In this document: piece by piece, positions 23,188 to 24,560 of the stretch
Layout: every line of letters starts with the position of its first letter
Numbering within the stretch: position 1 is the stretch's first letter
Assembly: GCA_951406725.2 (NCBI GenBank)
Contig: OX597819.1
Coordinates: 14,198,001-14,262,000 of the forward strand
Length of the DNA: 64,000 nucleotides
Source of the DNA: Octopus vulgaris
Taxonomy: Eukaryota
Reading direction: 5' to 3'
Notes under the pieces: generated by a model
Databases searched by the model: none
Told to the model about the DNA's origin: nothing
The model's input: only the letters and a program-made list of their open reading frames with translations
Position numbers and translations under genes: made by a program

Positions 23188-23550
23188 GTTGGTAGGTATG
23201 AAGGTAGATAGGTAGGTGGGTAGATAGTTGTGTCGGTCATTTCAAGATTTTGTTTTGTCAGTTCAGCAGAATAAACTTCGCTGAAGAGATGCAATAATAC
23301 TGAAACATACACGTTACTGTTATCAATCTGTTCAATATAACAGATCCACCCCAAAGTGCATCATTTTTATTTGCCCAAAAATTTCTGTTGATTTTATTGA
23401 CGTCATCTTTCTTATGCTTATTTAAAAAAATTTTAACCAGCCCAAGAGGAAGATCTTTTCAACTAATTGTTCAGATAAACTCACAATTACAACGCAAACA
23501 CACACAACACAAAATTAACATGTGACTACTACCATAGCAAAAATGACCAT

Positions 23551-23738
23551 GGGCATATGGCATAGTGGTTAAGAGCGCGGGCTAGTAACCCCAAGATTCC
23601 GAGTTCGATTCCAAGCAGTGACTCGAATAATAATAATAATAATAATAATATCGAAAAATACCTTAGGAACGAGAACCCAGGTTTGAAATTTCCCCAAGAC
23701 ACCTGATGAAGGCTGGAGGGTATATCAGCCGATCGATG

Positions 23739-23741
<3 letters not shown>
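23551..23741 (+). mobile_element. tRNA-Thr(AGT)-like headed element ending in a partial hammerhead
   Basis: A box TGGCATAGTGG, anticodon arm GGG-CT-AGT-AA-CCC, B box GAGTTCGATTCC, (AAT)n, then CTGATGA-A-GGCTG/CAGCC helix II; GAAA degraded to GATC. Confidence 0.7.
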
Positions 23742-23827
<86 letters not shown>

Positions 23828-23864
23828 TTGTATATATATATATATATATATATAAAAAAAAATA

Positions 23865-23911
<47 letters not shown>

Positions 23912-24199: not shown

Positions 24200-24362
24200 A
24201 TATTCGTCTGTTTTTACGTTCTGAGTTCAAATTCCGCCGAGGTCGATTTTACTATTCATCCTTTCGGGGTCGATATATTAAATATCAGTTGCGTACTGGG
24301 GTCGATGTAATCGACTGGTCCACCCCCCCAACATTTCGGGCCTTGTGCCTAGAGTAGAAAAC
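24200..24362 (+). mobile_element. SINE-B, 5'-truncated
   Basis: GAGTTCAAATTCCGCCGAGGTCGA... Confidence 0.85.
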
Positions 24363-24560
24363 ACTATATAGCTGTGTATATTTTGATGTGTAAATATGAA
24401 TGCAGGGCCAAAGTCTTGAACTTGGACAGCTGAATGTTGGACTCCGGTTTCATTTTTCTCAACGACAAAGTAATTAATGGGTTATTGGATTCTTTGAGAA
24501 ATTTGTTCTTTATGGCTTCAAATTGAGAAAAAGAACCCTCAAAACAAATGACAATAGTGT

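Follow-up and report, generated by a model that had tools for sequence, protein, structure and literature searches.

The tRNA-like repeat with a hammerhead motif that lies in the window (the whole 64,000-nt stretch of Octopus vulgaris contig OX597819.1 analyzed here) is almost certainly a terminal repeat (pLTR) belonging to an autonomous Penelope/Poseidon element. The head with which the repeat begins is likely to have served as a Pol III RNA start, judging from its promoter-like boxes and from where copies end. Taken together, a tRNA-headed Penelope pLTR whose head starts Pol III transcription is considered the probable explanation for the family; that Pol III also read the whole ORF is rated at slightly below an even chance. 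The architecture of the element is established, and the Pol III mechanism is what we infer. New here are the full-length unit, a peak of 5' ends at the head start, and a reading frame free of TTTT.

The layout of the window copy is given in Table 1. Earlier reading of this copy, made from its letters only, had described it as a ribozyme-tailed SINE, and the parts it listed (A box, loop with AGT, B box, (AAT)n, CTGATGA, extra A, and the stem II arms) are all present. The note had also suggested the hammerhead as the end of the element. The window copy is instead broken on its 3' side at 23732, after the GA of the hammerhead, and the sequence that follows the break stands where the rest of the ribozyme, a post segment, and a tail belong; family copies extend ~60 or ~90 bases farther (30 retrieved loci). 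Because the copy is broken and others continue, the (TA)n tract is not its tail. ARAGORN calls no tRNA in the window, and Rfam gives only low-complexity matches between 22500 and 25000, with no head or hammerhead call. Ahead of the copy, the stretch at 23526-23539 could be what is left of an inverted head piece, now worn, although it is very short. A different abundant SINE-like repeat is present at 24200-24370 of the window, and it recurs in many of the family loci retrieved.

Table 1. Features of the window copy and adjoining sequence (positions are those of the window).
Feature	Position	Strand	Remarks
Imperfect palindrome spanning the head start	23543..23556	+	
tRNA-like head, start of the Penelope terminal repeat	23551..23625	+	likely Pol III internal promoter
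A box	23558..23568	+	by general box consensus
Anticodon-like loop	23582..23588	+	AGT (23584-23586) in window copy, ACT in family
B box	23601..23611	+	by general box consensus
(AAT)n spacer	23626..23649	+	length varies from copy to copy
Pre-hammerhead segment	23651..23698	+	contains likely ORF start codon
Likely start-codon site	23669-23671	+	ACG in window copy; ATG in 88/94 unbiased arms
Minimal type I hammerhead, 5' part	23698..23732	+	lies within the element's ORF; made up of the 5' strand of stem I, CUGAUGA, extra A, stem II, and GA
ACAC	23699-23702		
CTGATGA	23703-23709		next base is the extra A
Stem II arms	23711-23715 and 23726-23730		GA directly after
Nine unrelated bases and interrupted (TA)n tract	23733..23909	.	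outside the element

The family is large. With the 191-nt window sequence as query, the genome gave 793 candidates, 40 of which were scored. An exact search of the genome with a 33-mer core that takes in GAAAC yields 2,166 matches, and a flank-anchored pattern yields 4,306, while the reversed control of each has none, so the motifs in the window are not there by chance. Beyond CCGA, nearly all of the 30 retrieved loci complete the core and stem I, and where a continuation of GAAAC-GTH-GTGT had been predicted, other copies indeed read GAAAC-GTT-GTGT. A pattern excluding the usual upstream bases yielded 362 matches belonging to a second subfamily (B). This subfamily (L111-L145) is more diverged, with a frame-keeping 6-nt indel and changes in loop II, but keeps the core and stem II. 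The A and B boxes of the two subfamilies differ solely at purine-degenerate places, one of which may reflect CpG decay. In the anticodon-like loop, ACT is found in 139 of 164 heads and AGT in just three, and when the head is aligned to tRNAs of the genome, Thr, Arg, and Ala tie, with merely eight isotypes sampled. The Thr(AGT) label first given to the head is not supported for the family.

The autonomous element was reached solely through the flanks of subfamily B, where the end of a Penelope-type ORF adjoins the head. A search with this ORF end gave 4,838 candidates; in 29 of the best 30 loci (two of which were already in an earlier locus set) a head lies ~30 nt behind the stop codon. Approached from the other end, with 29 loci picked by N-terminal ORF DNA, forward parts of the repeat stand directly before the ORF body in 15. 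Several single copies span the junctions: in L207 and L221 the sequence begins at the head and passes on into the ORF, L212 continues upstream of its head into another ORF end, and L194 is a full-length partial tandem. A natural copy, L223, can be read without a stop from the hammerhead across the tail and on into the ORF, and its N-terminus is identical to that of an independent 847-aa relative (P0004) at 43 of 88 positions, residues encoded by the hammerhead included. The column majority of 75 pieces has 784 open codons after the tail; with the ATG ahead of the hammerhead, the protein would be ~835 aa. Read in order, the unit consists of a head, an (AAT)n stretch, the ORF start, the hammerhead, the post segment, a 33-nt tail, the remaining RT and GIY-YIG frame, a 30-nt spacer, and the head again. 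The palindrome that spans the head start falls, in the family, within the spacer behind the ORF stop, and is the center of many inverted pairs.

The single frame carries RT and C-terminal GIY-YIG motifs. RVT_1 is matched at E 2.7e-6, below the curated cut-off, and the endonuclease is read from its motifs, Pfam making no call; protein relatives at E 1e-40 number 2,407. The closest of these (P0002-P0007) are 53-68% identical and have a low Phe content in common. A zinc-finger-like linker between RT and endonuclease, described as a mark of Neptune and Nematis (PMC8557442), is present in the Neptune-type L091 and L094 of this genome and absent from the element, which by that criterion and on its predicted protein places it with Penelope/Poseidon. 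Copies are ~91% identical to the majority and none of 150 scored ORF-end candidates has a full open frame, so the family looks extinct or nearly so. Contigs of four other organisms cover the ORF start, hammerhead, head, and ORF end, but among the pieces listed none joins the head to the ORF with 31 letters on either side; in viral contigs no relative was found.

Some other candidates were set aside. An ATG within the hammerhead core is not the start, its frame having stops and differing from the open one. Neptune-type families found in a GIY-YIG family search do not have this end and are not the partner. ACG in place of ATG as a mark of a short-copy lineage turned out to be sampling bias (three of 58 short arms vs. 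three of 36 ORF-linked arms). A test meant to pick out ORFs of subfamily B matched those of subfamily A as well, and was given no weight. The same genome holds a young Neptune-type Penelope family (L091, L092, and many other places) with an intact 781-codon frame and a U3/A8 variant of the hammerhead core, as well as other Neptune-type families (L101, L109) with hammerheads of their own. At L109:3100-3170 there is a different minimal hammerhead family in inverted arrangement, with a further inverted pair near 2710-2860.

Of the ribozyme-tailed SINE, what stands is that a tRNA-like head of Pol III type and a minimal hammerhead of Penelope type are joined, thousands of times over. What is not supported is a separate SINE with a borrowed end, the head belonging as a constant part to the terminal repeat of the autonomous element itself. 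The short copies have a tRNA-like head with A and B boxes and are non-coding and abundant, as is structurally expected of a tRNA-derived SINE; the autonomous partner of such a SINE is, however, expected to lack the SINE head and share only its LINE tail, and here 29 of 30 ORF-end loci have the head. The short head-to-tail copies probably behave like SINEs, as solo Penelope terminal repeats.

The family hammerhead is of the minimal type I form, with CUGANGA, an extra base, stem II, GAAA, a palindromic stem III, UH, and a short stem I. Among 90 unselected copies, 40 have an intact core; outside CpG, strong variation in the core is confined to the free position N7 (20/90). Metazoan Penelope hammerheads of this type (described in PMC4209133) likewise have the extra base between A9 and G10.1, the G10.1-C11.1 pair, a short stem I, and a palindromic, loopless stem III, but a stem II of 7-8 bp, whereas that of the octopus family has 5 bp. 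Since stem III has no loop, cleavage by the ribozyme is predicted to require a dimer or assistance from protein. In monomer folds the lowest-energy form is not the hammerhead (z -1.5). Tandem units bounded by the ribozyme cut are not the form of this family, with a single exception: at L146:1790-4220 (C25, about 19153270-19155770) there is an array of ~32 head-less 76-nt units, each made of the hammerhead and post segment of the tRNA-headed family, with the core changed in many units. The array sits in an inverted insertion unit, and looks like a retrozyme-type satellite born from the repeat.

Insertion footprints were taken from 69 loci selected by the exact core alone (its first places on contig C1). 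An upstream inverted arm is present at 42 of them. In 41 of these the 33-nt tail is one-sided, with 23 tails on the forward arm and 18 on the inverted one; no unit is tailed on both arms, and one has no tail at all. Among 32 inverted units with two defined ends, 16 are flanked by a direct repeat of at least 8 nt (1.5 in shuffles, with a maximum of five); target duplications are 8-13 bp. An inverted arm, a one-sided tail of 30-40 nt, and a short target duplication are together described as the footprint of endonuclease-bearing Penelope elements (PMC8557442, PMC3846280). Movement of the tRNA-headed copies by a Penelope-type enzyme, as had been suggested from the window copy, is supported by this pattern. 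Arms within a pair are no more alike than arms across pairs (p 0.25, 25 pairs). For the anole element, the tail is reported to lie between two internal RT start sites in the first 120 nt of the ORF, with both strands extended (PMC11167929).

Head and hammerhead were expected from the window copy to occur together in many copies, and 41 of the 69 core-selected arms do map to the head on the same strand, the other 28 having no head match. Nine of the 41 end inside the head, 21 end at -7 to +8, and 11 continue upstream into the spacer or ORF. Thus 21 of the 32 arms reaching the head start end within a 16-nt window, where 1.2-1.7 would be expected from flanking end rates; for four alignments running into a fold-back, the 5' end was set by hand at -4 or -5. 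The palindrome can explain nine of the 21 head-start ends, and 5'-end palindromes are known from Penelope repeats without a tRNA head (PMC3846280). When the nine pairs folded at the palindrome are left out, 12 of 23 ends remain at the head start (p 4e-10), between -5 and +4. A consensus of loose ends from 153 contigs of one DNA run has just ~7 bases before the head, and in four DNA runs the commonest loose end at the head is a fold-back at the palindrome. The 11 of 32 arms, and L212, that extend upstream of the head need longer or second-round templates. A validated pattern for the A and B boxes, run with a positive control, is found in 14 of 30 of the family's own loci, in none of 15 relatives, and in none of four Neptune loci.

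Pol III terminates at runs of four or more T. The majority ORF body (2,386 nt, 784 codons) has 12 TTT runs, but TTTT is absent; raw copies have it at 0.39 per kb. The probability of finding no TTTT is 0.003 and 0.014 under base-frequency nulls and 0.054 and 0.058 under codon-usage nulls, in a test that is post hoc. The four Neptune-type ORFs of the same genome have 8, 8, 2, and 2 TTTT runs. Among related metagenome ORFs (49 of 80 loci, without a 400-codon open frame, being left out), 30 of 31 have at least one, as do 10 of the 11 in which T is at most 24%. A regression on 35 controls, related to one another, gives 5.1-5.7 expected TTTT runs and a probability of zero of 0.003-0.006. Close relatives of the element are likewise low in Phe (2.2-2.9%), so part of the T shortage may be a trait of the clade. 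One related Penelope ORF from a metagenome (L259:1-1620) is free of TTTT over 479 codons, and the 459 nt that follow it contain no tRNA head.

Transcription of the element by Pol III would fit both the 5'-end peak at the head and the TTTT-free frame. It would start ~5 nt ahead of the head and continue to a T run. The element protein would nick both target strands, and reverse transcription would begin internally, on RNA still uncleaved, at two sites lying ~60 and ~90 nt beyond the hammerhead cut; two internal start sites have been described in vitro for the anole element (PMC11167929). The two cDNAs would then be joined head to head, giving an inverted pair with one arm tailed. Copying from the upstream repeat would produce a short head-to-tail copy, which would keep its own promoter and could be copied again in trans, and copying from the downstream repeat would produce the ORF-bearing copies. 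Hammerhead cleavage would not be required for making a copy. The fullest version of this account is that a Penelope element took a tRNA-derived promoter into its terminal repeat, purged terminators from a 2.7-kb unit, and came to be transcribed whole by Pol III, the internal copying start then yielding both the full element and a built-in SINE from one transcript. It is offered tentatively, as something that may nearly as well be true as not.

The head could instead be a passenger, a tRNA-derived SINE that once inserted behind the ORF stop. Transcription would then be by Pol II or read-through, and the short copies would be 5'-truncated, piled up at the palindrome by cDNA fold-back. Such fold-backs are the commonest loose end at the head in the four DNA runs, other Penelope repeats are described with terminal palindromes (PMC3846280) and Pol II-type promoter motifs (PMC2377424), and with codon nulls the absence of TTTT is merely borderline. 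This account is nevertheless unlikely, given that ends without an inverted head still gather at the head start (12 of 23), that the boxes are kept in both subfamilies, and that the whole body is TTTT-free where 30 of 31 metagenome controls and four of four Neptune-type ones are not. Quite improbable is an arrangement in which Pol III makes only the short RNA, from a separate SINE lineage that shares the Penelope repeat sequence and perhaps came first and recombined in, the ORF RNA coming from Pol II. Copies such as L207 and L221, which begin at the head and extend into the ORF, speak against it, neither repeat nor ORF contains anything that would halt Pol III, and no site cleanly distinguishes short from ORF-linked copies: a difference at N7 is confounded by arm choice, arms having been selected on the core, and one other has p 0.009. 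It would account for short head-start copies outnumbering ORF-linked ones ~2 to 1 among head-reaching arms, and would agree with the argument that Pol II transcribes the autonomous partners of Pol III elements (PMC10886601).

The remaining alternative, that hammerhead cleavage of the Pol III transcript determines which 3' end is copied, was the mechanism first proposed for the window copy, and is scarcely credible now. As 65 of 69 arms extend at least 30 nt past the predicted cut, and only one stops within 10 nt of it, self-cleavage does not set the 3' end. The loopless palindrome of stem III argues in the same direction, as do catalytic mutants of the anole hammerhead, which are reported to leave insertion unaltered (PMC11167929). 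The core is nonetheless intact in the family and in the 40 of 90 unselected copies, and 5' ends are slightly more frequent right after the cut (11 of 126 arms within 12 nt, vs. eight in the preceding 30 nt), so occasional cleavage may take place.

In its general plan the octopus element resembles other members of its group. Poseidon_Ac of anole (PMC11167929), Adineta Pen2a (PMC3846280), and the Penelope of D. virilis (PMC2377424) are described, like it, with one frame for RT together with a C-terminal GIY-YIG domain. Penelope/Poseidon elements also have in common with it a terminal repeat containing the hammerhead and ORF start, partial tandems, an inverted 5' arm, a one-sided tail of 30-40 nt, a short target duplication, and the position of the promoter (putative in the octopus) within the repeat. 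The promoters described for them are Pol II-like (DPE, TATA/Inr), whereas the octopus element has a tRNA-like head with A and B boxes and a TTTT-free frame.

The pairing of a head with a ribozyme is, as such, already known from the schistosome repeats SM-alpha and Sj-alpha (reviewed in PMC6765202), which are likewise short and abundant, with a Pol III promoter followed by a hammerhead. As presented in that review, they have canonical hammerheads and occur in tandems that are set free by cleavage, with no description of an autonomous element that has their head; the octopus copies begin at the head, not at the cut, and have the Penelope footprint. A Pol III promoter derived from a small RNA within a retrotransposon terminal repeat is also described in the TRIMp3 elements Cassandra, Helenus, and Ajax (PMC10886601), but these are short non-coding LTR elements, their autonomous partners being expected on Pol II, and the octopus repeat belongs to a coding element of the non-LTR-type Penelope group. 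Animal non-LTR retrozymes (10.64898/2026.07.22.740005) and the non-autonomous Chlamys elements such as MRC1 (PMC8557442) are, like the short octopus copies, described as non-coding derivatives of Penelope repeats that are moved in trans. No tRNA head is mentioned for either, the word tRNA occurring nowhere in the retrozyme preprint, and the retrozymes are tandem arrays. No Penelope element with a tRNA head was found in the literature searched, including passages of PMC4758252, PMC13282606, and PMC8967140; repeat databases (Repbase, Dfam) and a 1994 octopus SINE paper lay outside its scope, as did the sequences of the published octopus SINE families OK, OR1, and OR2, so the tRNA-headed family may already have an entry among these.

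Should Pol III play no part, this is an ordinary, extinct Penelope family with an odd passenger. Pol III has been taken to serve short non-coding retroelements only, with autonomous partners expected on Pol II (as set out in PMC10886601). That rule would be broken by a protein-coding element with a promoter of tRNA type and no terminator in its frame, should Pol III in fact read it whole, and the question would arise of how an uncapped Pol III RNA gets translated. It would also offer a direct route to the birth of a SINE, as a solo terminal repeat that keeps both its promoter and the site recognized by the enzyme. The sharp RNA start would be a natural test of how the inverted pairs and one-sided tails of Penelope elements arise, and such copies, numbering in the thousands, would end up wrongly filed as SINEs or tRNA pseudogenes.
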